Positions 21,898-43,087 are shown, counted from the stretch's first letter. The stretch: DNA of 64,000 nucleotides from Faecalibacterium prausnitzii (GCA_963603165.1 CAVCLY010000001.1:1860-65859), one strand, 5' to 3'. The notes: a model not told the origin generated them from the sequence alone. A program made the numbers and translations.

Positions 21898-22557
21898 ATG
21901 ATCAAGGTTGTGTTGTTCGATATGGACGGAACGCTCGTCGATACCGAGCGTTTGGGAATCAAGGCGTGGGACCAGGTTGCCATCGACCTCGGTATCAGCA
22001 TTCCGCACGAGGTGAGCAAGTCGTTCATCGGTCACAACAAAAAGGACGTCCTTGCGCTCTGCGCCGCGTGCGTGGGCTCGGAGGAGCTTGCGGTCGACGT
22101 GTACGATCGCCACGCGGCCTACGAGATCGAATGGGCGCCGACGGAGCTCGAGACCAAAGAGGGTGCGCACGAGTGCCTGCGCGAGCTTGCCGATGCCGGT
22201 TTTGAGCTCGGCCTGGTGACTTCCTCGCGTACCGAGACCGCGAAGCGCCGCTTGGGCCAGTTCGACCTGGAGCCGTATTTTAAGCTTCTGACCTGCGGCG
22301 AAGAGGCTGAGAACGGCAAACCGGCGCCCGATATCTACCTCAAGGCGGCCGAGAAGTTCGGCGTTGCCCCCGATGAGTGCGTGGTCGTGGAGGATTCCGT
22401 CAACGGCGCGCGCGCAGGCCTTGCGGCCGGCATGCAGGTCTTTGCGATCCCCGATATGGTTGTGCTGCCCGACGAGGTCAAGGATGCCTGCGCGGGCGTG
22501 CTCGACAGCCTGCTTGAGATTCCGGCGGCCGTTGCGGCGCTGAACGCGGCAGAGTAG
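21898..22557 (+). CDS. HAD-family phosphatase (beta-PGM/CbbY-like)
   Basis: FDMDGTLVDT, VTSS, KPAPDIY, VEDSVNG. Confidence 0.92.
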   Translation: MIKVVLFDMDGTLVDTERLGIKAWDQVAIDLGISIPHEVSKSFIGHNKKDVLALCAACVGSEELAVDVYDRHAAYEIEWAPTELETKEGAHECLRELADAGFELGLVTSSRTETAKRRLGQFDLEPYFKLLTCGEEAENGKPAPDIYLKAAEKFGVAPDECVVVEDSVNGARAGLAAGMQVFAIPDMVVLPDEVKDACAGVLDSLLEIPAAVAALNAAE

Positions 22558-22623: not shown

Positions 22624-22780
22624 ATGCGCGATGATCCTTGGCACAGGTGCGGCACGGCGCGAGGATGAATCGCCTTTCGTTTCCTGGGCATTCGGCTGTG
22701 TCCCAGGCTTAGACGCCCTAAATCTAAGCGTCCAATTTAGAGTCCACACCCCTAAGTTCCTGAAAATCGGCTCTGTGAAC

Positions 22781-22925
22781 ATCGAACTCCCGAGAATGCA
22801 TGATTGATTTGCCAATCGGTGAGTAGAGGCGGGATTTCGAGAACGTTCAACTGGGAAAACGTCGATCGTCCCGGCCGGTCTGGTCGGCAAACCCAAAATC
22901 AATCGTGCATTCTCGGGAGTTCGGT
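22781..22925. repeat. 145-bp terminal-inverted-repeat element, copy 2
   Basis: ATCGAACTCCCGAGAATGCATGATTGATTT...AAATCAATCGTGCATTCTCGGGAGTTCGGT; same length as copy 1. Confidence 0.9.
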
Positions 22926-22961
22926 TGCGAACGGGCGGTTTTTCGCTGCTATCGCCCGTGG

Positions 22962-24083
22962 TTACAGGTATGCGCCCAGGTTGAGTTCGGGTGAGCGGCC
23001 GTCGATCTGTGTCACTCCAGCGGTGCTCGCGCGTTCGAGCAAGAAGGGGCGCACCAGTTCCTGGTGGTTGCCGGGCGCCGCGGTATCGGGCGCCGCCGGA
23101 ATGATGTTGCCGTGGATGCCCGTGGTGGTGCGGCCGGGCTTGGGGTCGTCGCCGTGCTCGATCTGCTCTATGAGCAGCTGCACGCCCTTGCGGCCGATCT
23201 CGTATCCGGGAGGCGCCACGGTGGTCATGGGCACAAAACCGCTCCAAGCGAGCGGGTTGCCGTCGCAGCCTGCTACGCGCACGTTCCCCGGCACGATCAG
23301 GCCGTTTTGCGAGAGCCCCGCGATGGCGCCGGCGGCGAGCACATCGGTTAGGCCGACCACAAAATCCGGTCGATTGTCCTTTGGGCGCGCGGCGAGCTGC
23401 GCGCCCAGGCTAAAGCCGTCGGCCGCGGTGTTCCACTCTCCTGCATCGATAATCTCGAGCTTGATGTCGGGGTGATGCGCAAGTGCCATGCTGATGCCCT
23501 TAACGCGCAGACTAAGCTGCATAAACGCTGCGCGACCGATCACGGCGACGTGCGTGGCACCGCACTGCACCGCATGCTCGGCGATGATGCGCCCTTGTGC
23601 CCTGTTGTCGGCGGCCACGTAGTAGCCCGGCAGCTCGCAGTGGATATCGAGATAGACCGTGGGGATGGGGGTGTTCCGCAGCGAGGGCGTCCAGTCGTCG
23701 CTCGCCATGGGCTGCACCAGCACACCCGACATCTGCGATCCCATAAAGTAGCGCAAGTAGTGGTCGGCCAAGATGTCGTCGTTATCGGCGTTGGCGACGA
23801 GCAAGTCATAGCCGTGCTTGCGTGCTTCGTTGTGCGCGCCGCTTGCGATCTGGAGCGAAAAACCGTGATCCAGACGCGGCAGCACGAGGCCGAACGCCTT
23901 GGTGTGGCCGCCAGCGAGCTGGCGGGCGCTTTGGTTGGGCAGGTAACCCAGGCGGTCGATGGTTTCGTTGATGAGCTTGAGCGTGTCGGGACGCACTTTC
24001 TCGGGATGATTGATCGCGTTCGAGACGGTGCCGAGTGAGACCCCCGCCTCGCGCGCCACATCGCTGATCTTGACTTTTGCCAT
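22962..24083 (-). CDS. LacI-family transcriptional regulator of the rhamnoside locus
   Basis: KISDVAREAGVSLGTVSNAIN HTH, LGYLPNQSARQL hinge, VAGCDG, MTTV; divergent from rhaB. Confidence 0.95.
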   Translation of the reverse strand: MAKVKISDVAREAGVSLGTVSNAINHPEKVRPDTLKLINETIDRLGYLPNQSARQLAGGHTKAFGLVLPRLDHGFSLQIASGAHNEARKHGYDLLVANADNDDILADHYLRYFMGSQMSGVLVQPMASDDWTPSLRNTPIPTVYLDIHCELPGYYVAADNRAQGRIIAEHAVQCGATHVAVIGRAAFMQLSLRVKGISMALAHHPDIKLEIIDAGEWNTAADGFSLGAQLAARPKDNRPDFVVGLTDVLAAGAIAGLSQNGLIVPGNVRVAGCDGNPLAWSGFVPMTTVAPPGYEIGRKGVQLLIEQIEHGDDPKPGRTTTGIHGNIIPAAPDTAAPGNHQELVRPFLLERASTAGVTQIDGRSPELNLGAYL

Positions 24084-24105
24084 GGCGACCTCCGGCGCGT
24101 AGGCG

Positions 24106-24123
24106 TTTGAAAACGTTTCAATT
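24106..24123 (-). promoter_or_regulatory. LacI operator (autoregulatory)
   Basis: AATTGAAACGTTTTCAAA on the minus strand, 22 nt upstream of the lacI start. Confidence 0.75.
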
Positions 24124-24363
24124 ATAGCAACGTGCGGGTCGAGGTTGCGTTTGGGAACGTATTTGGAACGTGCGGATGAGCGCAAGCGTCCGTGCTGTCG
24201 GCTATCTGTTCGGACGGCGTTTTCGGTCGGCAGCGAGCGCCCACGGCATCGGCTTTCAGCACGCGAACGGAGGCTGCTGAGGTGATGCGAGCCCTCTCCG
24301 TTGTGCCATGCCGTTCATCGGGGATTTTCTGCCGTTCGCGGACGACTCAATATCGTGTATTGA

Positions 24364-24416
24364 AATTAAAACGCTTCAAGCAATAATGAAAACTGTAATT
24401 GAAACGCTTCAAGCAA
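24364..24416 (+). promoter_or_regulatory. Tandem LacI operators over the rhaB promoter
   Basis: AATTAAAACGCTTCAAGCAA (24364-24383) and AATTGAAACGCTTCAAGCAA (24397-24416), 33 bp apart. Confidence 0.8.
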
Positions 24417-24426
24417 GGGGAGAGCA

Positions 24427-25914
24427 ATGGCGGGTCGTATCGAGTCAAAGCATTACGCAGCAGTCGACATCGGTGCATCCAGCGGTCGAGTGCTAGCCGG
24501 CTGGATCGAGGGCGGCAAGATGACCTACACCGAGGTTTATCGTTTCGACAACGAGCAACGCCGCGTGAACGGCCATGACTGCTGGGATGTCGAGGCGCTG
24601 TTCGAGCACGTGCTCGCCGGCCTCCGCGCCGTCAAGTCCGAGACGGGAACTGCCCCCGCAACGATCGGTATCGATACCTGGGGTGTCGACTTCGTGCTCC
24701 TCGACGACGACAACAAGATCGTCGGCGACACCGTCGCCTACCGCGACGCCCGCACCGAGGGTATCTACGAGCTCGCCGATCAGATCATGGACCCGGCCGA
24801 GGTCTACGCCAAGACCGGTATCCAGCGTCAGCCCTTCAATACCCTCTACCAGCTGCTCGCCCTTAAGAACGAGCATCCCGAACAGCTCGAGGTCGCTCGC
24901 ACGTTCCTTATGATCCCGGACTATCTCAACTGGCGTCTCACCGGCATCAAGGCCAACGAATACACCAACGCCAGCACCACCGGCATGCTCGACGCCCGCA
25001 CCTGCACGTGGGATCCCGAAATCCTTGAGGCCTTCGGTATCCCGCAGGGCATCTTCATGAGCCCGACGATGCCGGGCGCCGTCCTGGGTGAACTCTCGGC
25101 CGACGTCTCCGAGCGCATCGGCTACTCCGCGACCGTCATCCTGCCGGCCACGCATGACACCGGTTCCGCCTTCCTCGCCGTGCCGGCTCAGGACGACAAC
25201 GCCGTCTACATCTCGAGCGGCACTTGGAGCCTGCTCGGTGTTGAGAACAAGGAACCCATCACCAACGACGCCGCCCGCGACCAGAATTTCACCAACGAGG
25301 GCGGCTACCAGAAGCGCTACCGCTTCCTTAAGAACATCATGGGCCTGTGGATGAACCAGTCCGTCCGCCGCGAGGTCAACGGCGTCGACTACGTCGAGGG
25401 TAAGACCGACCACAAGGCGCTCATGGACCACAAGGTCGGGTTCGACGAGCTCCGCACGCTCTGCCGCGAGGCGGAGCCTTACGAGGCCTACGTCGATGTC
25501 GACGACGATCGCTTCCTTGCGCCCGATTCCATGATCGACGAGATCAAGGCCGCGTGCGCCGAGGGCGGCCAGCCGGTCCCCGAGACCATCGGCCAGATCA
25601 TGCGCACCAACTACTGCAGCCTTTCGCGCTCTTATAAGAAGGCGATTGCCGGCCTGGCCGAGCTCGCCGGGCACGACTACACGAGCATCAACATCGTGGG
25701 CGGCGGCTGCCAGGATTACTACCTCAACCAGATGACGGCCGATACCTGCGGGCTTCCTGTATTCGCCGGCCCCATCGAGGGCACCTGCATCGGCAACTTC
25801 ATCGTTCAGATGATCGCCGGCGGCGACTTGCATGATCTTGCCGACGCTCGCGCCTGCGTCGCCCGTAGCTTTAACGTCGAGCGCATCGACCCCAAGACCT
25901 CGGCTGACAAATAA
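24427..25914 (+). CDS. rhaB: Rhamnulokinase (FGGY family)
   Basis: AVDIGASSGR, GIDTWGVDF, YRDART, TGIQ..FNTLYQL, HDTGSA, ISSGTWSL, FTNEGG, LKNIMGLW. Confidence 0.92.
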   Translation: MAGRIESKHYAAVDIGASSGRVLAGWIEGGKMTYTEVYRFDNEQRRVNGHDCWDVEALFEHVLAGLRAVKSETGTAPATIGIDTWGVDFVLLDDDNKIVGDTVAYRDARTEGIYELADQIMDPAEVYAKTGIQRQPFNTLYQLLALKNEHPEQLEVARTFLMIPDYLNWRLTGIKANEYTNASTTGMLDARTCTWDPEILEAFGIPQGIFMSPTMPGAVLGELSADVSERIGYSATVILPATHDTGSAFLAVPAQDDNAVYISSGTWSLLGVENKEPITNDAARDQNFTNEGGYQKRYRFLKNIMGLWMNQSVRREVNGVDYVEGKTDHKALMDHKVGFDELRTLCREAEPYEAYVDVDDDRFLAPDSMIDEIKAACAEGGQPVPETIGQIMRTNYCSLSRSYKKAIAGLAELAGHDYTSINIVGGGCQDYYLNQMTADTCGLPVFAGPIEGTCIGNFIVQMIAGGDLHDLADARACVARSFNVERIDPKTSADK

Positions 25915-26138
25915 GCCGATGGACGGCGGTCGAGCGGGCCATCGGGCGCCCACGACGACCGACCGATTTCGATTACCCCCCAGCCCCGCAGACGGCCTTG
26001 ACTCCGCCACCTGCGAGCGGCTCTCTCCGATGGCACCGGCGCGGGCACCCTACACACCTATCCCGCGCCACGTGTCCCATCGGATTACATACCTAGTTGT
26101 TCATTGGGCCCGACGGGCCCCGGAGAGGAGAATGAAAC

Positions 26139-26969
26139 ATGGCAATGGAGGATCTGGAGTTCACTAAGGGATTCTGCAGGCTCTGCGACGACGGCTTCAA
26201 GCAGGGTTGGCATGAACGCAACGGCGGAAACCTCACCTACCGCATGACGGACGAAGAGGTCGCCGCGGCGAAGCCCTACTTCGAGGAGCCCCGCGAGTGG
26301 GTCAAGATGGGCGTTAAGGGCGAGAACCTCGCAGGCCAGTACTTTGTGAGCACCGGCTCGGGCAAGTACATGCGCAACGTCCTCGAGGATCCCTACCAGA
26401 ACATCGGCATCGTCGAGATCAACGAGACCGGTGACGCCTTCCGCATCGTTTGGGGTCTCGCCAACGGCGCGCGCCCGACGAGCGAGTTCGAGAGCCACTA
26501 CATGAATCACTGCGTGACCGCCGCCCGCACGAACGGCGCGAACCGCGTGATCTACCACGCGCACACCCCGGGCATTATCGAGATGTCCTTCATCGTGCCG
26601 CTCGAGGACCGCACCTTCACCCGCATCCTCTGGCAGATGATGACCGAGTGCGTCGTCGTGTTCCCGACCGGCGTGGGCGTCGTGCCCTGGATGGTCCCGG
26701 GCGGTCCGGCGATCGCCGAGGCGAGCTCCGAGCTCATGAAGACCTACGACACCATCGTCTGGGCGCATCACGGTCTCTTTGCCGCCGGCCCCGACTTCGA
26801 CACGACCTTTGGCCTGGCGCACACCGTCGAGAAGGCTGCCGAGATCTACCTGGCCGCCCGTGCCGCCAACGGCGGGTCGGACGACTTCCTCAACATGATC
26901 AGCGACCAGGGTCTCAAGGACACCTGCCGCGACTTCGGCATCAAGATCAACGAGGCCTTCGTCGACTAG
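26139..26969 (+). CDS. rhaD: Rhamnulose-1-phosphate aldolase
   Basis: GWHERNGGNL, TGSGKYMRN, PTSE, HAH zinc motif, WQMMTEC, PWMVPG, WAHHG, VEKAAEIY. Confidence 0.93.
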   Translation: MAMEDLEFTKGFCRLCDDGFKQGWHERNGGNLTYRMTDEEVAAAKPYFEEPREWVKMGVKGENLAGQYFVSTGSGKYMRNVLEDPYQNIGIVEINETGDAFRIVWGLANGARPTSEFESHYMNHCVTAARTNGANRVIYHAHTPGIIEMSFIVPLEDRTFTRILWQMMTECVVVFPTGVGVVPWMVPGGPAIAEASSELMKTYDTIVWAHHGLFAAGPDFDTTFGLAHTVEKAAEIYLAARAANGGSDDFLNMISDQGLKDTCRDFGIKINEAFVD

Positions 26970-27074
26970 CCGTTAGGGAAGACAAGGCGGCCTCGCTGCT
27001 GGGGAGCATATGGGGCCGCCTTGGAATCGCGCCGTCCAAACGGACGGCGGACACATCAATTGTAAGGAGAAATA

Positions 27075-28322
27075 ATGGGAAACACTCGTGAACGCCACGT
27101 GAATCCGTGGTGGGTCGCCGTCGTCTCGGGCATGGCCTCCTACATCGACTCCTGCGCGATCATCTCCTCGGGCACCGCCCTCGTCATCTACCAGACGACG
27201 TTCGGCCTCGACAACGCCCAGTTCGGCCTTATCTCCGCGGCCCTGACGTTCTGCATCGCCATCGGCTCCATCCTGGGCGGCAGCCTGGGCGACAAGTTCG
27301 GCCGCAAGCCCGTCTTCTCGGTCACCATGGCCATGCTGATCATCGGTGCTGTGACCATGATCTTCGCCACCACGTTCCCGCTCCTGCTGCTCGGTGAGGT
27401 CCTCATGGGCCTGGGCGTGGGCGCGGACCTGCCGGTCTCGCTCGCCACGATCGCCGAGGAAGCGCCCGATGACAAGCGCGGCAAGATGCTGCTCTTCTCC
27501 GACATCCTCTGGGTCGTGGGCATCGTCATCGCCCAGGGCATCGGCGCTCTCGTGGGCGATTGGGGCTACCTCGGCGGCCAGATCATGTTCACGCAGCTCG
27601 CCGTCGTCTCCATCATCGTGCTCGTCGCCCGTCAGACGATTCCCGAGTCCCCGGTTTGGATTCGCGCCCATGAGGACCTTCTCGCCGGCAAGGTGACCAA
27701 GGAGGCCCAGGGTAAGATCTCCGATCTGTTCAAGAACCCCTATGCCAAGCCGTTCATCGCCCTTGCCATCTTCTACATCGGCACCAACATCCCGGCGAAC
27801 TCGCTCGGCCAGTTCTCCACCTGGATCGGCGCCAACGTTGTGTCCCTGCCCATCTCCGTCGTGTCCACCATCGGCCTGATCTGCTACCCGATCCGTGCCA
27901 TCCTCGACTTCGTGTTCATGAAGTTCGTCGATACCGATAAGCGCATGCCGCTGTTCTACACGGGCGCCGCGCTCTACCTGCTCGGCTTCCTTATGTTCCC
28001 GATCTTCGGCGCCTCGACCTACACCTATGTGGCCACGCAGCTGCTCTACTGCATCGGCGCCGCCTTCGCCTTCGAGGGCATCCTCAAGGTCTGGATGCAG
28101 GAGTGCTTCCCGACGCTGCTCCGCACCACCGCAAACGGCGCCATCGTGTTCTCGTCGCGTTTCCTGTGCGCCGTCGCCGGCTCCTTCACCGCGACCTTCA
28201 TCGCGACCGCCGGCTACAAGGCTGCCTTCCTCGTCCTCTCGCTTCTCTGCGCCATCGGCTTCGTGGCGGCCATCTGGGCCTTCCACGGCAAGCGCTACAA
28301 CGCCTTCGAGGACGCCGAGTAG
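27075..28322 (+). CDS. MFS sugar transporter (IolF/RhaY-like)
   Basis: About 12 hydrophobic segments, GSLGDKFGRK motif A, GMASYID N-terminus, ECFPTLLRTT. Confidence 0.88.
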   Translation: MGNTRERHVNPWWVAVVSGMASYIDSCAIISSGTALVIYQTTFGLDNAQFGLISAALTFCIAIGSILGGSLGDKFGRKPVFSVTMAMLIIGAVTMIFATTFPLLLLGEVLMGLGVGADLPVSLATIAEEAPDDKRGKMLLFSDILWVVGIVIAQGIGALVGDWGYLGGQIMFTQLAVVSIIVLVARQTIPESPVWIRAHEDLLAGKVTKEAQGKISDLFKNPYAKPFIALAIFYIGTNIPANSLGQFSTWIGANVVSLPISVVSTIGLICYPIRAILDFVFMKFVDTDKRMPLFYTGAALYLLGFLMFPIFGASTYTYVATQLLYCIGAAFAFEGILKVWMQECFPTLLRTTANGAIVFSSRFLCAVAGSFTATFIATAGYKAAFLVLSLLCAIGFVAAIWAFHGKRYNAFEDAE

Positions 28323-28518
28323 TTGCTACCCCTTTCTGTACGCCGTCATGCTGCCGCGTCGTGAGCGCATGACGGGGGCGGATGGTCGCCCGCAAGGCCA
28401 TCTGCCCGTCTCTCGTGCAATCGCGGACGGGCGCGGCAGAGGTTTCTTTCTGTTGCGCTGATGGGATAAGGTCGCGCCCGCCCGCATGCATAAACCGTTT
28501 TCTTCTTTAGGAGGAATC

Positions 28519-29946
28519 ATGCTCGTCAACACCAAAGCCAAGGTCGGCGTCTTCGCCATCGCCCTGGGAGCCTATCTGCCCCAGTTCCCGCAGCTCGTTC
28601 CCAACTTCGAGGGTCAGTTCGAGGACTTCAAGAAGACCATCCCCGATACCGTCGAGCTCATCGACGGCGGTATCGTTACCACCAAGGAGCAGGCTCAGGA
28701 CACGGGCGACAAGTTCCGTGCCGAGGACGTTGACCTGGTCATCCTTCAGATGCTCACTTACGCCACCTCCTACAACGTGCTGCCGGTCGTCCGCGACCTC
28801 GACGTGCCCGTGGTCGTCGTCAACGTGCAGAAGAAGGCCCATCCCGACTACGAGCACACCGACATCCCCACGTGGCTCGGCGACCTCTACGCCTGCGGTG
28901 CCCCCGGCGAGGTCGTGGCCGATCTCAACCGTGCCGGCAAGCGCCATGCCGTCATCACCGGTGTTGTCGAGGGCGGCGATCCCGAGGTCGCCCGCCAGAT
29001 CGACGAGTGGTGCCGCGCCGCGAACGTCCGTCGCCGCCTGCGCCGCACGAATATCGCCCAGATCGGTCGTCCGTATCCCGGCATGATGGACCTCTATATC
29101 GACGAGACCAACCTCTACAACCGTCTGGGCCTCTACACCAAGCAGTTCGACTGGGAGAAGATGTGGGTCATCGCCGACAACATCGACGACCAGGCCGCGA
29201 TCGATGCCAAGGCCGCCGAGATCCTCGACACCTTCGATGTGGAGGGCGGTGCTGCTGTCTCCGACGAGCCCATCCAGGAGATGGCCAAGTACGTTATCGC
29301 CTTTGAGCAGTGGGTCAAGGACGAGCAGATCGGACTCGTCGCGAGCCACTACGACGGCTTTGCCCAGGGTGCGGCCGGCAAGCTCGACTCCATGCTCATC
29401 CCGGCGTTCTCCATGTTGATCAAGCAGGGCACCGCCTGCGCCGTCGAGGGAGATATGAAGGTTGCCGTCGCCATGAGCATCTTGAAGACGATCTCCGGCA
29501 CCGGTCAGCTCTCCGAGATGTACTCCATCGACTTTACGGATGACTGCGTGATCATCGGTCACTCCGGCTCCGGCGACGCCGACATCTCGACCGCCAAGAA
29601 GCCGACGCTCAAGGTCGTGCCCGTGTTCCACGGCAAGACCGGCGGCGGCTACCTCACCCAGTTCTATCCCGGCCATGGTCGCATCACCTATCTGGGTATC
29701 ACGCAGGACGGCGACGGCCACTTCAAGTTCGTCGTGGCCGAGGGCGAGAACATCGACGGCCCGATCTTCACCTTCGGTGACACCAATATGCACATGAAGT
29801 TCTCGATCGGCGCCCGCGAGTTCATGAACCGCTGGAACGAGTGCGGCCCGACGCACCACATGGCCGCGTGCCTGGGCAGCCAGACCGACACGATCCTCAA
29901 GGTCGCCAAGATTCTGAACGTTCCCTGCGAGGTCGTTTGCCGCTAA
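28519..29946 (+). CDS. L-fucose/L-arabinose isomerase-family protein
   Basis: CAVEGD, SEMY, IGHSG, GPTHH metal-ligand pattern of the FucI/AraA fold; AGGAGG RBS. Confidence 0.85.
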   Translation: MLVNTKAKVGVFAIALGAYLPQFPQLVPNFEGQFEDFKKTIPDTVELIDGGIVTTKEQAQDTGDKFRAEDVDLVILQMLTYATSYNVLPVVRDLDVPVVVVNVQKKAHPDYEHTDIPTWLGDLYACGAPGEVVADLNRAGKRHAVITGVVEGGDPEVARQIDEWCRAANVRRRLRRTNIAQIGRPYPGMMDLYIDETNLYNRLGLYTKQFDWEKMWVIADNIDDQAAIDAKAAEILDTFDVEGGAAVSDEPIQEMAKYVIAFEQWVKDEQIGLVASHYDGFAQGAAGKLDSMLIPAFSMLIKQGTACAVEGDMKVAVAMSILKTISGTGQLSEMYSIDFTDDCVIIGHSGSGDADISTAKKPTLKVVPVFHGKTGGGYLTQFYPGHGRITYLGITQDGDGHFKFVVAEGENIDGPIFTFGDTNMHMKFSIGAREFMNRWNECGPTHHMAACLGSQTDTILKVAKILNVPCEVVCR

Positions 29947-29971
29947 CGGTTCGAGTGCGTGTTTAAACATC

Positions 29972-30011
29972 GGCCGGCCGGGTTTCCGAACGGATGCCCG
30001 GCCGGCTTTTT
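29972..30011 (+). terminator. Intrinsic terminator ending the rhaB-isomerase unit
   Basis: GGCCGGCCGGG...CCCGGCCGGC plus T5. Confidence 0.8.
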
Positions 30012-30217
30012 GTGCTCGTGGTCTGTTATAAACGGCTGTTTTTAACATGCGGAGGGCAAAAGCGCCGTGGTCGCCGTTGTTGTCGAAGTTTCCGTAGCCA
30101 GCGTGCCCGCCGAAATCGTCGATATCGCTGTTGAGCCGAAGTTCCCGCTCGGCCGCAAGTTCGGATCTTGTTGCGGCATGACCGTTCACCGGCCCACTCG
30201 GGCCGTTTGCGGACAGG

Positions 30218-30232
30218 TTTGAAACGCTTCAG
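30218..30232 (+). promoter_or_regulatory. LacI operator overlapping the -35 of the PTS operon promoter
   Basis: TTTGAAACGCTTCAG, same core as the rhaB operators; TACTAT -10 at 30243-30248. Confidence 0.75.
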
Positions 30233-30288
30233 TTTCTTCAGATACTATATAGACAAAGAAAAGCTGCGCCGGAGACAAGGCGTCAGTG

Positions 30289-30362
30289 GGATTGTTATTC
30301 CAGATGGAAGCATGACCGGCAGGCAACGTGGACGCACGCTGTCTGTCGGTCTTTCTTGTTTT
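30289..30362 (+). promoter_or_regulatory. BglG/SacY-type RAT overlapping an intrinsic terminator
   Basis: GGATTGTTATTCCAGATGGAAGCATGACC (30289-30317) matches the RAT pattern GGATTGTTAC...GCAxxACC; its 3' end overlaps stem GACCGGCAGGCA/TGTCTGTCGGTC followed by TTTCTTGTTTT. Confidence 0.85.
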
Positions 30363-30443
30363 AGCGGCAGCTATTCTAGGTGCGACGTGGTGCACAACGT
30401 CGTGCGATCGGGTGCCGTTTGGCGCCAAGGCAGAGGAGGAATC

Positions 30444-32126
30444 ATGGCTGAACCCATCGACAGCATCAAGGCCCTTGCGGGCGGCGAGGCGAATATCGGC
30501 TCGTGCAACGTGAGCGCGCGCGGGGTCCGCATCGTGGTCAAGGACCGCAGCGCCGTTCAGCTCGAGCGGATCTGCGCGGTCGACGGTGTTGCGACGGCGA
30601 CCGTCGGCTCCTCTGCCCTTAAATGCACATTCACCCAGAGAAGGGGAGAGCAAATGGGCCAGTACCATGAGCTTGCCGGCAAGATTCTTGAGAATGTCGG
30701 CGGAATCGAGAACGTCAAGAGCGTTCGCCACTGCATCACGCGCCTGCGCTTTGTCCTCAAGGACGAGAATATCGCGAACGACGATGCCATTTCAAGTCTC
30801 GACGGCGTCATCCAGGTTATGAAGGCCGGAGGCCAGTATCAGGTCGTGATCGGAGCTGCGGTCGACGATGTGTACGAGGAACTGATCTCGGGATACAAGG
30901 TGCCCGGTATCGGCGCCGTCGCGGCTGATGAGGAGTCCGAGAAAGTCGAGGACGGCAAGAGCAAGAACGTCTTCAACATGCTGATGGACACTGTTTCGGG
31001 CAGCATGGCACCGACGCTGATGCCACTCGCCGCGGCCGGTATGATCAAGGGCCTGCTGGCGCTCTGCATCGCCATGGGCTGGCTTACCGCCGATAATGGC
31101 ACGTACATGATTTGGTACTCCATCGCCGACGGCTTCTTCTACTTCCTGCCCATCATCCTGGGCTACACCGCCGCCAAGAAGTTTGGCTGCAGCGAGTTTC
31201 TGGGCATGGCGCTCGGTGCCGCGCTCGTATATCCGTCCATGGTGAACCTGAGCACGACGGCCAAGGTCATGGGTACGCTCTTTGAGGGCACCGCCTTTCA
31301 GATGAGCTTCTACAACGCGTTCCTGGGCATTCCGGTCGTTCTGCCGGCGTCCGGCTACACCTCGAGCGTTATCCCGATCCTGATCGCCGTGTGGGCTGCC
31401 TCCAAACTCGAGGGCGCGCTTAACAAGACGGTTCCGCAGCTTATCCGCGCCATGGCCGTGCCGTTCATCTGCTTTGTCATCATGGCGCCGGCGACCTATC
31501 TGGTGATCGGCCCCGTCGCCTCGATGATCTCGGGTGTTTTGACGCTCATAACCGAGGCCCTCATCAGCGTTCCCGTCGTGGGTGGCGCCCTTGTCGGCCT
31601 CGCCGTGGGCGGCGCGTTCTCCACGCTCGTCATGTTCGGCCTGCATTGGGCAATCATCCCCATCATGCTCAACAACATCGCCATGCTCGGTTACGACCCG
31701 CTCATGGCAGCCGGCTCCATCGGCGGCTTTGTGGGCGTGTCGCAAGGTCTGGTCGTCGTGCTGCGCACCAAGAGTGACAAGACGCGCAACGTGGCTATTC
31801 CGGCGACCATCTCGCAGTTCTTCGGCGTGGGCGAGCCCCTGCTCTACGGCATCCAGCTCCCCAGCAAGTTCCTCTTTATCCAGAACATCGTGTTCTCGGC
31901 TCTGGCCGGTTTGGTGATGGGCGCCCTCAACGTGCATGCCTACAGCATGGGCAGCGCCGGCCTCTTCGGCATCCCCACCTTTATGGATCCCTCCGGAGCC
32001 GATACGACCAACATCGTGTTCTACCTGGCCACGCTGGCCGTGGTCATGGTCGTCGCCTTTGTCTTCACCATGGCGACCTATCACGATGACGGCTGCTATC
32101 TGGGCAAGTCGCGCGACAAGGCCTAG
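30444..32126 (+). CDS. PTS transporter, beta-glucoside/sucrose type, EIIB'-EIIB-EIIC (no EIIA); alternative start at 30654
   Basis: VGGIENV..HCITRLRF EIIB with catalytic Cys, GQYQVVIG, DGFFYFLP, MFGLHW, GVGEPLLYG; RBS at both 30444 and 30654. Confidence 0.92.
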   Translation: MAEPIDSIKALAGGEANIGSCNVSARGVRIVVKDRSAVQLERICAVDGVATATVGSSALKCTFTQRRGEQMGQYHELAGKILENVGGIENVKSVRHCITRLRFVLKDENIANDDAISSLDGVIQVMKAGGQYQVVIGAAVDDVYEELISGYKVPGIGAVAADEESEKVEDGKSKNVFNMLMDTVSGSMAPTLMPLAAAGMIKGLLALCIAMGWLTADNGTYMIWYSIADGFFYFLPIILGYTAAKKFGCSEFLGMALGAALVYPSMVNLSTTAKVMGTLFEGTAFQMSFYNAFLGIPVVLPASGYTSSVIPILIAVWAASKLEGALNKTVPQLIRAMAVPFICFVIMAPATYLVIGPVASMISGVLTLITEALISVPVVGGALVGLAVGGAFSTLVMFGLHWAIIPIMLNNIAMLGYDPLMAAGSIGGFVGVSQGLVVVLRTKSDKTRNVAIPATISQFFGVGEPLLYGIQLPSKFLFIQNIVFSALAGLVMGALNVHAYSMGSAGLFGIPTFMDPSGADTTNIVFYLATLAVVMVVAFVFTMATYHDDGCYLGKSRDKA

Positions 32127-32152
32127 CCTCCGCACATCCATAGCTCCCCAGC

Positions 32153-32188
32153 AAAGGGGACGGTTCAACGTGGCGAACCGTCCCCTTT
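32153..32188. repeat. Perfect 14-bp inverted repeat (REP-like) between PTS and GH78 genes
   Basis: AAAGGGGACGGTTC-AACGTGGC-GAACCGTCCCCTTT. Confidence 0.75.
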
Positions 32189-32215
32189 CAACTTCTCTTC
32201 CGAAAGGGTGGATCC

Positions 32216-34474
32216 ATGCAGCCTGATACCTTTGGCGCTCGGTGGATTTCGGGCGAACCGTTCGCCTACGAAACTGAGGCGGCTTACTACGACGAGCGGC
32301 ATCGCAACCACGTCGTCTGCGCTTCGTTCGAATTGGAGACCGTGCCCCGCACCGCGGCTTTGGCAATTGCCGTCATGGGCTACGCGCGCGTGCGCGTCAA
32401 CGGTTCCAGGATGGATGAGTCCGAGCTTTTGGGATGGTGGACCAACTTTACCAAGAAGGTTTACTCGCATGAGGCGGAGGTTTCCGGCCTGCTTGCCGCG
32501 GGCGTTAACACCATCGAAATCGAGTTGGGGAACGGCTTTTTCAACCCGTCTCCGCTCCGGCTGTTCGGCAAGTACAACCTTCGCGAGCGCCTTGCGGAAG
32601 TGGGGACGCCGCGCGTCATGTCCGCACTCGTTGCGAATGGCGACGAGGTGCTCGTCAAGACCGACGGGTCTTGGACGTCAATCGAGGGAGAGCTCCTGTT
32701 TAATAACGTGTACTTGGGTGAAGTGCGAGATTTGCGCCCGTACGAGGCGTGTGAGAACGGGGTTCATGTTTGGAAGGATGCCCGTTCCATAGAGCCGTCG
32801 CCGGTGGCTCCCTGCGTGCGTGGTGCCGCGGTGAGCCCGGTACGCGTCTTTGAGCACCGGGGCAAGACGGTCATAGATTTTGGTGAGGTCGTCGCCGGGT
32901 TTTGCCATCTGGTCCTGCACGCGCATGAAGGGCAGCGTGTCGATGCGGCGTATGCCGAGACATGGCGAGACGGGGAGCCGTATGCGGGAACGGCTGTTGC
33001 GGGATATGCGGGCATGGCCACGCCGCGCGGCGTTTGCCCGGGTGGCCCGGGTGCTCCGGAGCCCGCCGTGCAGCACGATGCCATCGTGTGCCACGAGGGC
33101 ACGAATGAGTTCGAGAATGAATTCTGCTGGCACTCATTCCGCTTTGTGACGCTTGAAGGCGCAGCCGTTGAGGATGTGATCGAGGCACGGGCGATCTATG
33201 TCCATACCGATCTTGAGGCGGTCGGTAGCCTGGAATTGGGCAACGAGGCCTTTGTGGCGCTGCACGATGCGGCGATCAGGACCAAACTTAACAACAACCA
33301 CGGGATCTTTGAGGACTGCGCGCGCGAGCGCTTTGGTTACGGCGGCGACATGATAGCCCTGGCCACGTCGCAGATGTTCAGCTTTAACGTGAGCGGCCTT
33401 ATCGATAAGTCGCTCGCCGACTTTGCCCGCGACCAAACGGAGCGGGGCGGTCTTCCCGAGACGGCGCCGTTTATGGGGATCGGTTCCAACGGGCCTGCGT
33501 ACGGTGAGGGCCCCCTGCTCTGGCAGCTCGCCTACCCGTATCTGGCGATCGAGGCCGATCGCATCTATGGAAGGCGCGACCTGCTCGAGCGCGAATGGGC
33601 GGGCATCGAGCGCTTTGGCAGCTACCTTCTTGGGTTCGATGCCGAGGAGCTTGCCGCTCACTGTCTGGGCGACCACGGCAGCCTTATCGCCCAGGGCTTT
33701 TCGAACGGATCACCCGACAAGGAATTCGCGGGCTGGTGCGCCATCCTTTGGGGAATCGATCTTGTTGCAGAGGCGGCGGGGCGCCTGGGTCATGATGCCG
33801 ACAGGTTGGCGGAGGAGAGCCGTGCGCTGCGAGTGCGGATCGTGGAGCGCTTTGGGCATGATGACGGCTCGTTTGGAGAGGGTACGCAGACGTCGTGGGC
33901 GTTTGCGGCCTGGCTCGGGCTGGGGAGCGAGACCGAGCTCGTCCGCCGTCTGGTGGGGGAGATCGAGTCGGCCGGCGTTCTAACCACCGGCATCTTCGGC
34001 ACGATGTTCGCCTTTGAGTTGCTCGCCCGCCATGGATACAGCGATGTGCTCGAGCGCTGGCTTTTGCGCGAGGGCGAGCCGAGCCTGCTCGGCATGCTGT
34101 CGAGCGGGAACGGCGCGCTGATCGAGATGTTCGACGACCCGCTCGCCTCGTGCGACCATGCCATGTTCTCGAGCTACGACCAATGGTTCTACCAGGGGTT
34201 CGGCGGAATTTTCATCGAACGCGATGCGCGGGGCTGCGACCGGATTCGCGTCAAGCCGTATCTGTCGCGGGCGACAGATCGTTTCGCGTGCGAATGGAAG
34301 TCGCCCGCGGGGCGTGTCTCGGTTGCATGGGAGCGCGCTGTCGCCGCGGCCGACGTCACGGTCGAGCTGCCCGTCGGTGTCGATGCGAGCGTTGAGGTTC
34401 CGTGGGGCTGCGAACTTGTTGAGCGCACCGAAGGCTTCGGTCGCATTACGATGCGTGTCAGAGAGGGAAAGTAA
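32216..34474 (+). CDS. Alpha-L-rhamnosidase (GH78), no signal peptide
   Basis: NTIEIELGNGFF, IDFGE, FCWHSFRFV, EDCARERFGYGGD, TTGIFGT, IEM, SCDHAMFS, SPAGRVSVAW. Confidence 0.85.
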   Translation: MQPDTFGARWISGEPFAYETEAAYYDERHRNHVVCASFELETVPRTAALAIAVMGYARVRVNGSRMDESELLGWWTNFTKKVYSHEAEVSGLLAAGVNTIEIELGNGFFNPSPLRLFGKYNLRERLAEVGTPRVMSALVANGDEVLVKTDGSWTSIEGELLFNNVYLGEVRDLRPYEACENGVHVWKDARSIEPSPVAPCVRGAAVSPVRVFEHRGKTVIDFGEVVAGFCHLVLHAHEGQRVDAAYAETWRDGEPYAGTAVAGYAGMATPRGVCPGGPGAPEPAVQHDAIVCHEGTNEFENEFCWHSFRFVTLEGAAVEDVIEARAIYVHTDLEAVGSLELGNEAFVALHDAAIRTKLNNNHGIFEDCARERFGYGGDMIALATSQMFSFNVSGLIDKSLADFARDQTERGGLPETAPFMGIGSNGPAYGEGPLLWQLAYPYLAIEADRIYGRRDLLEREWAGIERFGSYLLGFDAEELAAHCLGDHGSLIAQGFSNGSPDKEFAGWCAILWGIDLVAEAAGRLGHDADRLAEESRALRVRIVERFGHDDGSFGEGTQTSWAFAAWLGLGSETELVRRLVGEIESAGVLTTGIFGTMFAFELLARHGYSDVLERWLLREGEPSLLGMLSSGNGALIEMFDDPLASCDHAMFSSYDQWFYQGFGGIFIERDARGCDRIRVKPYLSRATDRFACEWKSPAGRVSVAWERAVAAADVTVELPVGVDASVEVPWGCELVERTEGFGRITMRVREGK

Positions 34475-34476
34475 GA

Positions 34477-36384
34477 ATGGCCTGTCGCTATCCGCATTTG
34501 TTTTCTCCCATCAAACTGGGCGACGTACTGGTTCAGAACCGTATCGTCGCCAATCCCATGAGCGAGCACTATGAGGACCGTTGCCGCGGCGGCGCGGGTA
34601 TCGTGATCTGCGGACATACGATCGTGGAGCCCGGCCGGTCATCGTGGATGTCGGCGGATGAACCCCATGCGTTTTCCAAATACGAGCGGGAGGCGACGGT
34701 CGCCCGTGCTCGCATGGCGCGAATGGCGGGTTCTGCCGCGAGCATCGAGCTCGCCCATGCCGGCCTGTATGCCCGCACGGTTGATTACGCCATGGGGCCC
34801 GATTCCTTTGTGCGCGAGGACGGCGTCGAGGTACGCGCCATGACGCCCGAGATGATGGATCATACGGCCGCGTGCTGGGCGCAGACCTGCGTCGATGCGC
34901 GCCGCGCCGGCTTCGACATGGTGTTCTTGCACTTTGGGCACGGCTGGCTCATGGGCCAGTTCCTGAGTCCGCTGTTCAACCACCGTGCGGATGACTACGG
35001 CGGCTCCATCGAGAACCGCATGCGGTTTCCGCTGCAGGTGCTGCGTGCGTGTCGCGAGGCCGTGGGGCCGAGGTTTCCCATGGAGATGCGGCTCTCGGCG
35101 GACGAGTGGATGCCGGGAGGTATCGCGCTGGAGGATGTCCTCGCCTTCTGCCGCGAGGCCCAAGCGTATGTGACGAGTATCCAGGTCTCGTGCGGACTCG
35201 ACATCGAGCATGAGGCCAACGTGCACACCTCGGCGACGAACCTCGACCCCCACCTGCTTAACATCGAGCTCGCCCGCGCGGTGAAATCGGCGGTTGACGT
35301 GCCTGTCACGCTTGTGGGCTCGGTCGAGACACCCGAGGAGGCCGAAGAGGCCATTGCGGGCGGTGCCTGCGACATGGTGGCGCTCGCCCGCGCCTTGGCG
35401 GCCGATCCGCTGTGGCCCGCCAAGGCCCGTGACGGTCGCGCCGACGAGATCGTCCCTTGCCTGCGGTGCCTGCAGTGCTACCACATCTCAACTGACCGCT
35501 GGAACGTGGGGTGCAGCGTCAATCCCCGCTTTGGCAACGAATCCTTTGTTCCGTTTGCCGTCGAGCCCGCCAAGGTCAAGAAGAGGGTGCTTGTGGTGGG
35601 CGCGGGGCCGGCGGGCGTCATGGCCGCCGTGACGGCGCATGCACGCGGCCACGAGGTGGTGCTTGCCGAACGCAGCGAATCCGTGGGCGGCACCGTTCGC
35701 CTGATCGCCCAGGAGAGCCACAAGGAAGACGCCGCGCGCTATTTGCGCTATATGCGCAATGAGGTCGACGGGCTCTGCGGGAAGGACGGCTTTGAGCTGC
35801 GCTTGGGCCAAGAGGTGACGTCCGAGGTCGTGGCCGAGCTCGCTCCCGACGCCGTGGTCGTCGCCGTGGGCGCCGAGCCTTTCGAGCCCCCCATCCCCGG
35901 TATCGATGGACCGGAGGTTATACCGTTTGTCGAGGCCATACCCCATATTCAGGAGCTTGGTGAGCGCGTTGTCATCGTGGGTGGCGGCACCATCGGCGCG
36001 GAGCTCGCCCTCGAGCTGGCCGAGATGGGACGTCGTGTTTGCGTGGTCGAGCGGGGCGACGAGCTCGCCTCACGCGGGAATTCACTCTTCAAGATCGCGT
36101 TGCGCCAGATGTTCGATAAACAGGATGGGCGCATCGAGGTGCTGCTCGGCACTGCCTGCTCTTCGATCGAGGAGGGTCGCGTGGTTGTAAGTGCGGCCGA
36201 TGGCACCGAGAGCGCGCTTGCGTGTGACAGCGTGGTGACGGCGCTCGGCGTGCACCCCCGCAGTGCCGTCGTCGAGTCGTTGAGCGGGATCGCGCCGCAA
36301 ACGATCGTGGTGGGAGATTGCCGCCGCGCGCGCGTGATCAAGGATGCGGTGTTTGAGGGCTACATGGCGGCCGCGGGGCTTTAG
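34477..36384 (+). CDS. Old Yellow Enzyme-family NADH:flavin oxidoreductase with Fe-S and FAD domains
   Basis: LFSPIKLG..NRIV, AGFDMVFLHFGHGWLMGQFLSP, DDYGGSIENR, CLRCLQC...CSVNP, GAGPAG, GGGTIG, GDC. Confidence 0.92.
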   Translation: MACRYPHLFSPIKLGDVLVQNRIVANPMSEHYEDRCRGGAGIVICGHTIVEPGRSSWMSADEPHAFSKYEREATVARARMARMAGSAASIELAHAGLYARTVDYAMGPDSFVREDGVEVRAMTPEMMDHTAACWAQTCVDARRAGFDMVFLHFGHGWLMGQFLSPLFNHRADDYGGSIENRMRFPLQVLRACREAVGPRFPMEMRLSADEWMPGGIALEDVLAFCREAQAYVTSIQVSCGLDIEHEANVHTSATNLDPHLLNIELARAVKSAVDVPVTLVGSVETPEEAEEAIAGGACDMVALARALAADPLWPAKARDGRADEIVPCLRCLQCYHISTDRWNVGCSVNPRFGNESFVPFAVEPAKVKKRVLVVGAGPAGVMAAVTAHARGHEVVLAERSESVGGTVRLIAQESHKEDAARYLRYMRNEVDGLCGKDGFELRLGQEVTSEVVAELAPDAVVVAVGAEPFEPPIPGIDGPEVIPFVEAIPHIQELGERVVIVGGGTIGAELALELAEMGRRVCVVERGDELASRGNSLFKIALRQMFDKQDGRIEVLLGTACSSIEEGRVVVSAADGTESALACDSVVTALGVHPRSAVVESLSGIAPQTIVVGDCRRARVIKDAVFEGYMAAAGL

Positions 36385-36429
36385 CTCGTGTGATATGGTT
36401 GCAGACGAGGGTTGAAAGGTAGACTTGCG

Positions 36430-37257
36430 ATGTGGATCTTGAAGAAGATCAACAACAATTGCGCGCTTGCCCGAGACGATTCCGGGCAGGACCTGGTGGT
36501 GTTCGGCAAGGGCATCGCGTACCGCCGGCCTCCCTATGAGCTCAAGGATCTTTCGCAGGTGGAGCGTACGTTCTACGGCATGGAAGGTGCGGGGATCGCC
36601 GCGCTCAAGGATATTCCCGAGGATGTTTTGCTGCTCGCCGCCGACATCATCGACTACGCCGGTGAGAAGCTCGACGTCGACTTCAATCCCAACGCGCCTG
36701 TGACGTTGGCGGACCACATCAACTTTGCCATCCAGCGGGTGCGGCAGGGAGTGGTGATCGAGACCCCGCTGACCTTTGACGTGATGCGCCTGTATCCGCG
36801 CGAGGTGGCGATTGCCAAGCGCGCCGTGACGTTTGCGAAGAGTCGTTTGGGCGTGGAGCTGCCACCGGCCGAGGTGACCAACATCGCCCTCCATCTGATC
36901 GATGGCGAGGCCGAGCAAAGCGATATGCAGGCGACGATCGAGGCGACGCGCGTACTCGAGGACGTGACACGTATCGTGACCGAACATATCGGCGAGGTCG
37001 ATACCGCTTCGTTCACCTATACGCGTTTTGCCATGCACGTGCGTTTTTTGCTCGATCGCATCAAAGGGGGTGCCGAGGTGGACGAGGGCCTTGGAACAAT
37101 GTTGCCCGTGATGAAGCGCGAATACCCGGAGGCCTATGCCTGCGCAGCGGACATCCTCGCCTACTTTCTCTCCTCGCATGGGTGGGAATGCAACGAGAAC
37201 GAGACTCTCTACCTGCTCATACATGTTCAAAGGCTCAAGGCGAGCATCGAGGAGTAG
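36430..37257 (+). CDS. BglG/LicT-family transcriptional antiterminator (CAT + 2 PRD)
   Basis: ILKKINNN...VVFGKGIAY CAT domain; PRD histidines LADHI, IALHL, FAMHV, LLIHV. Confidence 0.95.
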   Translation: MWILKKINNNCALARDDSGQDLVVFGKGIAYRRPPYELKDLSQVERTFYGMEGAGIAALKDIPEDVLLLAADIIDYAGEKLDVDFNPNAPVTLADHINFAIQRVRQGVVIETPLTFDVMRLYPREVAIAKRAVTFAKSRLGVELPPAEVTNIALHLIDGEAEQSDMQATIEATRVLEDVTRIVTEHIGEVDTASFTYTRFAMHVRFLLDRIKGGAEVDEGLGTMLPVMKREYPEAYACAADILAYFLSSHGWECNENETLYLLIHVQRLKASIEE

Positions 37258-39499: not shown

Positions 39500-39796
39500 G
39501 TTGATGGGGAACCTCTGTGCTTAGGGCGCCGGGCGCTCGCCAAGATGGCGGGCAATAACCGCCTTGCCCCTCGGCAATGCGTTCATATGTGCAGATGGCT
39601 TAGCGTATATCGACGCCGCTCGGGCTCGTTAATGGCTTCGTATTGCCGCTCGCCCGCGATAATCCGCCGACGGTCCATTTAAGTTTTGTTTTAACTTCGA
39701 TGCGCGCACTGGTGGGTCTAAAATTCCCGCGACTGTCTGTATGCATTCAGGTTGATCACACAGCCTGCGCATGTTGATCTGAAAAGAGTCGGGAAC

Positions 39797-42700: not shown

Positions 42701-43087
42701 GTCAAGGCGGCCGAGGAGGCTATTTCAAAGATCCTCGACGTGGACGCAACGGACGCCTCCAAGGAGGCCATCGAGGCTGCCAAGAAGGCCTACGACTCCC
42801 TGACCGACGAGCAGAAGAAGGCTATCGACGCCAAGTTCCCCAAGGCCGTGGCGAAGGCCGAGGAGACCTATACCGAGAAGGTTGCCGAGCAGAAGGCTGC
42901 TGCCGAGAAGGCTGCAGCTGAGAAGGCCGCTGCAGACGCCAAGGCCGCTGCTACCAAGAAGACCGTGACCACCAAGACCACGGTGATTCCCGCCACGGGC
43001 GACGTTTTGGATATCGCCGTTGTCGCCGTTGCGATCATGGGCATTGCCGCAATCGCGCTGGGCGCTGCGACTCGCCGCCGCAGCTAG
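39797..43087 (+). CDS. Sortase-anchored surface protein: signal peptide, C-type-lectin-like domain, YDG/MBG-like Ig domains, helical repeats
   Basis: MKKRALG signal; HYY..SWSAA..GYLATITS..WVGG..GEPN..C; KTYDGTT; C-terminal IPATG, TM helix, RRRS. Confidence 0.85.
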   Translation: MKKRALGIVLAAAIAAFAAPSNATAATPPSVTLGSYSTASNTFAAAEVTGDVKTLTVSVSGAGKIADTTGASTTDLNGTSATYAVASAAAAQEKLRSLTFSGTSNATEIEVTADGNETSKLPEGAKLTQVGDHYYMWVGEVLSWSAAYNKAKTFKYNGMQGYLATITSDSEYAALQAISKQGSWVGGTIMVYSSGAKINDESELPQKEGAFKFMREYGAEGVGQRDIAYNDYYWACGPDAGKSLSPLSTHSDGEPNAFRHTRTVDEIKPASVTDVLKMTKWESCLVANNSGTDVINDLIEPGQDGIYTGYFVEFGGYAEGKDPGKGDPTLTTAVSYSFAHQHGSWSYSADGATLTATCGASEGACGLTDRKVALTISAEGKTYDGQAASVTVGTLAEQKAWKATDLSIPSVTYKYRATPDDEWADATEAVRAGYYKACISGGSASAEVEFAINKRAVTVSGLTAKVKTYDGTTDAELVTSGAVFDSKVTGDSLSVTGTAVFESPSAGDGKRVVISDLALTGDSAANYELAAEGNQTTAGSNINKRVVELTWGNAEFEYDGESHAPTCTLGNTVAGDDVSATVSGAETNAGNDYEAVVSLGGNEASNYALPESATKKFSIAKAGIAPSVSLDGWTYGDEAKSPSVSGNTSGGAVTYTYYDAEGNALSGQPTDAGTYSVKATVAETANYKEATTKPCEFTIARKDISNATIELGDSLICNDAEQEQTVKSVTVDGLAVTYTVSDNKATKAGEYTLTVTGTGNFTGTATKKFTVAPNPDQVAADEVAELIEKIGDVKYNDDSKEAIEAAKKAYDSLTDEQKARVDSKIVEKLKQADDEYKKLDGEVKAAEDAVSKIGDVKYDGASKEAIEAAKKAYDALDDEQKKAIDPKIVELLKKSEDEYKKLDDEVKAAEDAVSKIGDVKYDGASKEAIEAAKKAYDALDDEQKKAIDPKIVELLKKSEDEYEKLDDEVKAAEEAISKILDVDATDASKEAIEAAKKAYDSLTDEQKKAIDAKFPKAVAKAEETYTEKVAEQKAAAEKAAAEKAAADAKAAATKKTVTTKTTVIPATGDVLDIAVVAVAIMGIAAIALGAATRRRS
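42161..42860 (+). repeat. Intragenic tandem repeat, 189-bp (63-aa) unit, about 3.7 copies
   Basis: Units start AAGATC at 42161, 42350, 42539 and 42728; the middle two are nearly identical. Confidence 0.95.

Follow-up and report, generated by a model that had tools for sequence, protein, structure and literature searches.

The 64,000-nucleotide stretch of DNA analyzed here (Faecalibacterium prausnitzii, GCA_963603165.1, CAVCLY010000001.1:1860-65859; hereafter the window) contains at positions 22962..37257 a nine-gene locus in which a phosphotransferase system (PTS) permease, a cytoplasmic GH78 rhamnosidase and a rhamnose pathway probably work in series on a rhamnosyl-hexoside, as judged from gene content and comparative genomics. 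The locus comprises a lacI gene and two operons, rhaB-rhaD-MFS-isomerase and PTS-GH78-OYE-bglG, split by a terminator-like hairpin; MFS denotes a major facilitator superfamily transporter and OYE a flavoenzyme of the old yellow enzyme family. Open reading frame (ORF) calling and family profiles confirmed the nine genes as real ORFs, in agreement with the gene content given in an earlier note on this DNA. All parts have known folds, and the locus as a whole combines the logic of a bgl-type operon with that of a rha regulon.

The GH78 gene (32216..34474, plus strand) belongs to a clade that is linked to PTS genes. Clade loci, 80 from genomes (the best 80 of 108) and 67 from metagenomes, were chosen by sequence pattern and not by context, and selected canonical GH78 regions from host-family, class and Lactobacillales searches, mostly Lactobacillales and Coriobacteriia, served as controls. 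GH78 ORFs with 550 aa or more numbered 164 (121 of this clade, 43 canonical); clustering at 90% gave 81 clade and 38 canonical clusters, of which 70 and 31 were left once those with less than 2 kb of flank (11 and 7) were dropped. A same-strand EIIC gene is the direct neighbor of GH78 in 62 of the 70 clade clusters versus none of the 31 canonical ones, and such a gene lies within 2.5 kb in 67/70 versus 3/31; with clustering at 70% the adjoining EIIC is found in 38/45 clade and 0/28 canonical clusters. These counts support the coupling of PTS import to a cytoplasmic GH78 more strongly than the earlier note, which had proposed it, could show. Canonical GH78 genes neighbor GH3, MFS, GH43 and ROK kinase genes, with GH3 next door in 9/31 canonical versus 0/70 clade clusters and MFS in 12/31 versus 1/70. 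The same genome has a second, canonical GH78 gene, which adjoins an MFS gene on another contig, and the canonical GH78s of the host family match the window's protein at just 26-29%.

In the tree, a single group holds all 82 clade sequences, set off by a long stem (0.78; support 0.77 at midpoint root). The clade spans three PTS families and occurs in Actinomycetota, Bacillota, Fusobacteriota and Gammaproteobacteria, four phyla in all. EIIC of the Lac family is basal, Coriobacteriia have EIIC of the Glc family, and a Man-family EIIC appears twice. Since the PTS partner was kept through these changes of PTS family, the pattern is the one expected of an enzyme acting on phosphorylated products, suggesting that the clade likely acts on PTS-phosphorylated rhamnosyl-hexosides. 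The closest loci, with GH78 at 70-77% identity, are mostly Collinsella records, and further clade records come from Erysipelotrichaceae, Lactobacillaceae, Enterococcus, Clostridium, Fusobacteriaceae, Vibrio and Photobacterium. Locus L057 belongs to a strain of Collinsella aerofaciens, and L093, which has the Lac-family type of PTS, to Longibaculum muris. Among 51 wide clade loci, the fetched flanks contain rhaB in 23, GH1 in 20 and an esterase gene in 26, and rhaB was found in the genomes of four of five further clade hosts. Clade members also match records of Klebsiella pneumoniae, unannotated at that place, and Enterococcus raffinosus. An EIIC-GH78-AraC-LamB porin-secreted esterase-EIIB-EIIA(-GH1) cassette occurs in Vibrio/Photobacterium and on metagenome contigs (L114-L118, L152-L172).

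The window's GH78 has all four Pfam domains of the family (6-hairpin catalytic, N-terminal, concanavalin-like and C-terminal), three of them far above cut-off and PF17390 at 26.7 versus 22.1, and lacks a signal peptide; in a crude test, only 1 of 81 clade members showed a hydrophobic N-terminus, pointing to a cytoplasmic clade. It was aligned with 31 of 120 listed homologues. The catalytic-site residues D367, E371, D378 and E637 are invariant in 82/82 clade sequences and align to D630, E636, D643 and E895 of SaRha78A, in which E636 and E895 are the acid and base. W436 is retained and most pocket residues are kept, whereas position 375 is Tyr in 82/82 clade sequences versus Trp in 36/38 canonical ones, and 62/82 clade members have His at 487. 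The clade also has loops of its own, one with K119 (76/82) and R123 (80/82). R370 was considered as a clade-specific phosphate ligand and dropped, as it aligns to SaRha78A R634 after a two-residue deletion.

The released rhamnose would enter a pathway whose isomerase is non-canonical. RhaB rhamnulokinase (24427..25914, plus strand) scores 530 bits against TIGR02627 (cut-off 528), and RhaD rhamnulose-1-phosphate aldolase (26139..26969, plus strand) scores 286 against NF002963 (cut-off 170) and 296 against TIGR02624, under its cut-off of 401. An L-fucose pathway was rejected, the FucK and FucA models scoring far under those of RhaB and RhaD. The fourth gene of the operon (28519..29946, plus strand) encodes an AraA-fold protein with a FucI/AraA C-terminal domain, predicted to be an L-rhamnose isomerase in replacement of RhaA. 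Its E310, E333, H348 and H447 align with the metal/catalytic motif positions of AraA and are kept in 49, 49, 49 and 48 of 49 aligned sequences. The protein reaches only 47 bits against the AraA model NF002795 (cut-off 622), has a rhaB/rhaD and not an ara context, shares 19% identity with the AraA-like protein in L290, and has 7CHL as its sole PDB match (E 4e-5). It is not a RhaA or RhaI either, with no PF06134 or TIGR02635 match anywhere in the genome (G000), and profile search of this genome (82% complete) found no RhaA, RhaM or RhaI.

Among 52 loci with rhaB or rhaD (not dereplicated), 35 carry this isomerase and 14 rhaA, with no locus carrying the two together, and in 3 the stretch contains neither gene. 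RhaA is missing from all 18 tested genomes that have the isomerase together with rhaB/rhaD, and RhaI gave no match above cut-off there, only two weak ones (32 bits, cut-off 531). Conversely, the isomerase was not found in three genomes with rhaA beside rhaB/rhaD or in two other hosts, in a search run without a positive control. The gene fills the rhaA slot in the order rhaB-iso-rhaD in L058, L060, L061 and L129, is followed by rhaM in L042, and its relatives at 33-37% from other Actinomycetota are mostly found within rhamnose clusters (L214-L218, beside rhaM-like genes). The mutual exclusion with rhaA and the 18 genomes without RhaA bear out the earlier claim of rhamnose catabolism through a non-canonical isomerase. 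This comparative evidence makes it quite probable that the enzyme of this clade is an L-rhamnose isomerase, likely a third type. Database search at E <= 1e-30 gives at least 1,645 relatives for this family; among the best 120, the few named ones are labeled arabinose isomerase.

The PTS gene encodes a Glc-superfamily, beta-glucoside-type EIIBC (30654..32126, plus strand) with HCITRLR, GLHW and GVGEP motifs, that is, the EIIB phospho-Cys motif and Glc-family EIIC of a BglF-like PTS. Its best model, TIGR01995, gives 438 bits against a cut-off of 615 and there is no IIA domain, so it is neither a BglF equivalog nor a permease with fused EIIA. An EIIB-like segment of 70 aa without the HCxTRLR motif (30444..30653, plus strand) is fused to it in frame, as in all sister loci translated (35-56% identity); the segment and EIIBC each have a ribosome-binding site before their ATG; NCBIfam search of the segment gave no match. 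At L042 (8237-9916) the EIIC is swapped (61% identity overall) while the EIIB is nearly unchanged and the other genes of the locus show 72-98% identity. This PTS is apparently an EIIC-only recombinant, its EIIB and C-terminal tail resembling those of the window and its EIIC grouping with L060/L061/L128.

The recombinant locus bears on the flavoenzyme gene (34477..36384, plus strand), which starts 2 nt after the GH78 stop at 34474, as the earlier note had seen. Co-conservation with GH78, a point on which that note had staked its reading beforehand, largely fails, because OYE adjoins GH78 in just 4 of 70 clade clusters, all from one Collinsella lineage, and is absent from the sister locus L042. 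Since it is missing from the locus with the swapped EIIC, OYE seems to follow the transporter allele, on the strength of just one or two events. Orthologues of the OYE (77-79%) and of the GH78 occur in the same 4 of 271 sampled genomes of the genus. Among seven OYE relatives at 49-61%, EIIC adjoins in six, often as OYE-PTS-RpiR, and GH78 lies nearby in one; at E <= 1e-150, no OYE was found in 250 scored Clostridia-class genomes, and the OYE contexts are from Coriobacteriia only. This distribution marks OYE as an accessory gene confined to one lineage and bound to a single EIIC allele.

The flavoenzyme has Fe-S and FAD domains with a CxxCxxC(x11)C motif, and 6QKG and 1PS9 are its best PDB matches. 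It scores 373 of 825 against BaiCD and 340 of 750 against BilR, far under both cut-offs, and thus does not qualify as an orthologue of either. The Trp of its HFGHGW motif (W157), invariant in 18/18 aligned sequences, stands where OYEs usually carry a proton-donor Tyr. Genes of the kind that neighbor equol-type reductases are absent from the locus. The enzyme most likely modifies something that its PTS imports, to go by its gene neighbors, and it might, tentatively, reduce a C=C bond in the imported compound. Reduction of an aglycone, the task assigned to it in the earlier note, is possible, but it is unproven and unsupported, as the OYE clade tracks PTS genes mostly with no GH78 detected. OYE-PTS EIIBC-RpiR cassettes with no GH1 or GH78 inside occur in Atopobiaceae-like genomes (L325, L326, L329, L085), OYE follows a Lac-family PTS in L324, and in a genome of the same family a serpin gene sits between two PTS operons beside OYE (L309:7436-8422).

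The claim of LacI control is supported by conserved palindromes before both operons. The LacI-family repressor (22962..24083, minus strand; Pfam LacI and Peripla_BP) is likely a RhaR-type regulator that gates both operons, judging by its sites; for Actinomycetales, passages of PMC3870299 describe control of rhamnose and rhamnoside genes by regulators of the LacI type. The pattern TGAA[AG]CG[CT]TTCA has exactly two matches in the 2.03 Mb of genome searched versus 0.2 expected, one before rhaB and one before the PTS gene. Operator-like sites fall on or just 3' of the predicted promoters of both operons. The predicted rhaB promoter (24360..24411, plus strand; -35 at 24360) has sites at 24367 and 24400, both kept in 9/9 sister loci, and the operator over the predicted -35 box of the PTS operon (30219..30248, plus strand) is kept in 10/10 aligned leaders. 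The palindrome upstream of lacI (24107..24121, no strand assigned), with a similar site in 5/5 sister loci, suggests autoregulation. LacI orthologues in sister loci are 60-74% identical and are placed after bglG.

RNA folding revealed two hairpins that a simple terminator scan had missed. The first (29972..30012, plus strand; z -5.06, followed by a U run) ends the rha operon. The second is part of the PTS leader (30289..30362, plus strand), where a putative ribonucleic antiterminator (RAT)-like element at 30289-30317, so labeled for its resemblance to the RAT consensus, overlaps an intrinsic terminator at 30314-30362 (z -4.73). Across 10 PTS leaders the RAT-like block is almost invariant and the terminator stem shows two-sided changes at 8 pairs. 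Rfam gave just 2 sub-threshold matches and none for this leader. Together with the BglG/LicT-family protein (36430..37257, plus strand; CAT_RBD and two PRD domains), the RAT-like block over a terminator makes up the components of BglG antitermination, with binding predicted. Neither this leader nor the EIIB-like fused segment was part of the earlier description.

In the proposed route, an alpha-L-rhamnosyl-hexoside would enter through the PTS, with EIIA supplied in trans, and receive a phosphate at its free O6, and GH78 would remove rhamnose from the phosphorylated import product. The AraA-fold enzyme would isomerize the rhamnose for RhaB and RhaD, while the leftover 6-phospho-glucoside would pass to a GH1 encoded elsewhere in the genome. 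The MFS protein (27075..28322, plus strand) would take up free rhamnose. It is sugar-porter-like and likely a RhaY-like permease; it appears dispensable, being missing from most sister Collinsella loci, and its relatives (26-32%) adjoin rhaM/rhaB/isomerase genes in distant Actinomycetota. LacI would gate both operons, and BglG would add antitermination when the PTS substrate is present. As the earlier note stated, the locus is devoid of rhaA, rhaM, EIIA and GH1, but EIIA (two stand-alone genes) and GH1 (13 matches) are present elsewhere in the genome, as is a gene for enzyme I; treating the missing EIIA and GH1 as a special feature was rejected because both are encoded in trans.

According to passages of PMC5698550, a PTS places the phosphate on its glycosides mostly at O6, and plant and aryl glucosides are known to be taken up by PTS that share EII modules in trans. 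O6 phosphorylation disfavors rutinosides, so this part of the earlier free-O6 argument follows from PTS chemistry as given there, whereas nothing picks out flavonoid neohesperidosides; a free O6 fits 1,2-, 1,3- and 1,4-linked rhamnosides and plain disaccharides alike. Secreted esterases are frequent in other hosts, which hints that their substrates are acylated, but this locus encodes none.

Several observations weigh against the serial scheme and its parts. The Fisher p of 6e-19 for PTS linkage is too strong, since related genomes are not independent, and 3 of the 70 clade clusters have no EIIC within 2.5 kb. Given Tyr375 and His487, the sugar pocket may differ from that of canonical GH78s. 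A perfect 14-bp hairpin with no clear U tail lies between the PTS and GH78 genes (32153-32188) and could lower their co-transcription. The locus has no lactaldehyde reductase gene, the best match in the genome being 35%. As for the isomerase, RhaI is present in all 6 genomes of its 33-37% relatives (above cut-off in 5), and in G541 a relative at 50% occurs together with RhaA. Two genomes from a different family within the order contain copies at 89% identity (L209:8529-9974, L221:8589-10034; G312, G440) with no rha genes in the fetched 16-18 kb.

Different assignments of substrate and enzyme must also be weighed. That GH78 is an ordinary rhamnosidase indifferent to phosphate, its PTS adjacency reflecting merely how these fermenters import sugars, would agree with its standard catalytic residues, with a phosphate-binding site that could not be shown, and with phosphatase genes near 9/51 loci, including the HAD gene that precedes this one; we regard it as somewhat unlikely, as no canonical GH78 from the same groups of PTS-rich hosts adjoins EIIC (0/31) and the clade has its own conserved basic loop with K119 and R123. 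The pathway enzymes raise a similar question, namely whether the isomerase feeds RhaB/RhaD from L-quinovose (the C2 epimer), L-mannose or L-lyxose instead of or besides L-rhamnose. Distant relatives do share a cluster with RhaI (L214: rhaEW, rhaI, rhaB, MFS, rhaM, isomerase), and the nearest NCBIfam model is the sulfoquinovose isomerase SftI (71 bits, cut-off 700), but the 18 of 18 Coriobacteriia genomes in which no other rhamnose isomerase was found and the occupied rhaA slot make such a role rather improbable.

On the side of the substrate, a plain rhamnosyl-hexose di- or oligosaccharide without aglycone (e.g., Rha-Glc or Rha-GlcNAc derived from polysaccharides of microbes or plants and in many cases acetylated), with OYE acting on an unrelated PTS import, would suit the Lac/cellobiose-family EIIC and LamB-type porins paired with basal parts of the clade, the many signal-like N-termini among the esterases of the wide loci, and the OYE-PTS-RpiR cassettes L325, L326 and L329 with no GH1 or GH78 match. 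The 2-nt spacing of OYE and GH78 in Collinsella and the co-variation of OYE with one EIIC allele speak against it, and we consider it a minority prospect. Much less probable is the import of whole flavonoid neohesperidosides of the naringin type with aglycone reduction, as by daidzein reductase (DZNR), for a core step. This agrees with the free-O6 logic and established aryl-glucoside PTS uptake (passages of PMC5698550), and OYE shares the Fe-S flavoenzyme architecture of DZNR (passages of PMC11574389). The joint presence of both orthologues in 4 of 271 genomes also favors it, but OYE adjoins few GH78 clusters (4/70) and its 49-61% relatives stand beside PTS (6/7) and seldom near GH78 (1/7). 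Also against it are the Trp in place of the usual Tyr (18/18) and the extension of the GH78 clade to Vibrio and Photobacterium. An acylated phenolic rhamnoglucoside of the verbascoside type (Rha-1,3-Glc with a hydroxycinnamoyl ester), whose cinnamoyl double bond OYE would reduce, is equally improbable. O6 is free in such compounds, and the required set of esterase, GH78, GH1 and PTS is present at many loci. However, this locus has no esterase gene (29-32% homologues lie elsewhere in the genome), OYE and esterase seldom co-occur, and a literature search showed no link.

In the surroundings of the locus, a HAD-family phosphatase gene (21898-22557) lies directly 5' and in sister loci directly before rhaB; it could be core context or encode a sugar-phosphate phosphatase. 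A 145-180 bp (approximate) element at 22762-22944 with terminal inverted repeats (49-nt arms, 78% complementary), resembling miniature inverted-repeat transposable elements or repetitive extragenic palindromes, has 16 further partial copies over 12 contigs and sits at the 3' end of lacI, whereas lacI follows bglG in sister loci. The window also encodes an elongation factor G-like paralogue with an atypical N-terminus (18798-20876), a predicted surface protein of 1111 aa with a YDG domain, repeated helical units and an anchor-like C-terminal tail (39752-43087), and a Fic-domain protein (58652-59860) in a low-GC, possibly acquired stretch (58-62 kb, GC 0.51-0.55).

Compared with known systems, the locus shares RhaB, RhaD and a sugar-porter-like MFS with the L-rhamnose regulons described in passages of PMC3870299 (RhaA or RhaI, RhaB, RhaD and RhaM, with uptake by RhaT, RhaY or ABC transporters), and with those of Actinomycetales it shares a LacI-type regulator that co-regulates a rhamnosidase and oligosaccharide uptake. 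It differs in its AraA-fold isomerase, the same passages naming only RhaA and RhaI, and in uptake by a PTS, a term that occurs 0 times in the main text of that paper. BglG, the RAT-like leader with terminator and EIIBC recall bgl/lic-type operons and the plant-glucoside PTS/phospho-beta-glucosidase loci of Lactobacillus acidophilus (passages of PMC5698550), as would intracellular hydrolysis of a phosphorylated glycoside with EII modules in trans. Unlike bgl/lic-type operons, the hydrolase of this operon is a GH78 and not a GH1, a flavoenzyme is added, and a second, LacI layer ties it to rhamnose catabolism. Characterized GH78s (DtRha 6I60, SaRha78A 3W5M/3W5N, AtRha 6GSZ) have the same domain set and acid/base residues, but the clade differs by the two-residue deletion and Trp-to-Tyr change in the D-C-x-R-E-R motif, its specific loops and a PTS instead of MFS/GH3 context. 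The isomerase shares the Glu-Glu-His-His site of the AraA/FucI fold and departs in sequence identity, model score and rhaB/rhaD context. The OYE barrel, four-Cys motif and FAD/NAD domain are common to the Fe-S ene-reductases BaiCD, BilR, DZNR, FadH and NCR, from which the window's enzyme is set apart by scores under the BaiCD/BilR cut-offs, the HFGHGW motif and the PTS-linked context. For A. clausii, passages of PMC12640052 state in general terms that glycoalkaloids are taken up by PTS and ABC transporters, and show no GH78 linkage. In the literature searched, which lay outside subscription journals and supplements (those of PMC3870299 and PMC8398226 being possibly relevant), we found no description of a GH78 clade linked to PTS genes, of an AraA-fold isomerase in place of rhaA or of the PTS-linked OYE clade. 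We would only tentatively go so far as to see in the GH78 clade the first phospho-glycoside-specific rhamnosidase subfamily, in the AraA-fold protein a convergent third L-rhamnose isomerase class, and in the Trp-motif flavoenzyme a PTS-coupled reductase acting on the imported, possibly phosphorylated glycoside.

Derhamnosylation in the gut controls the availability of many dietary glycosides, and in the papers examined it combines uptake by MFS or ABC transporters with GH78s of the ordinary kind. A PTS-coupled GH78 clade could go unnoticed or look weak in assays with unphosphorylated substrates. If the proposed functions hold, the AraA-fold rhamnose isomerase would account for the lack of rhaA in many Coriobacteriia, and the GH78 clade would define a PTS route for rhamnosides that has not been described, with members in Actinomycetota, Bacillota, Fusobacteriota and Gammaproteobacteria.

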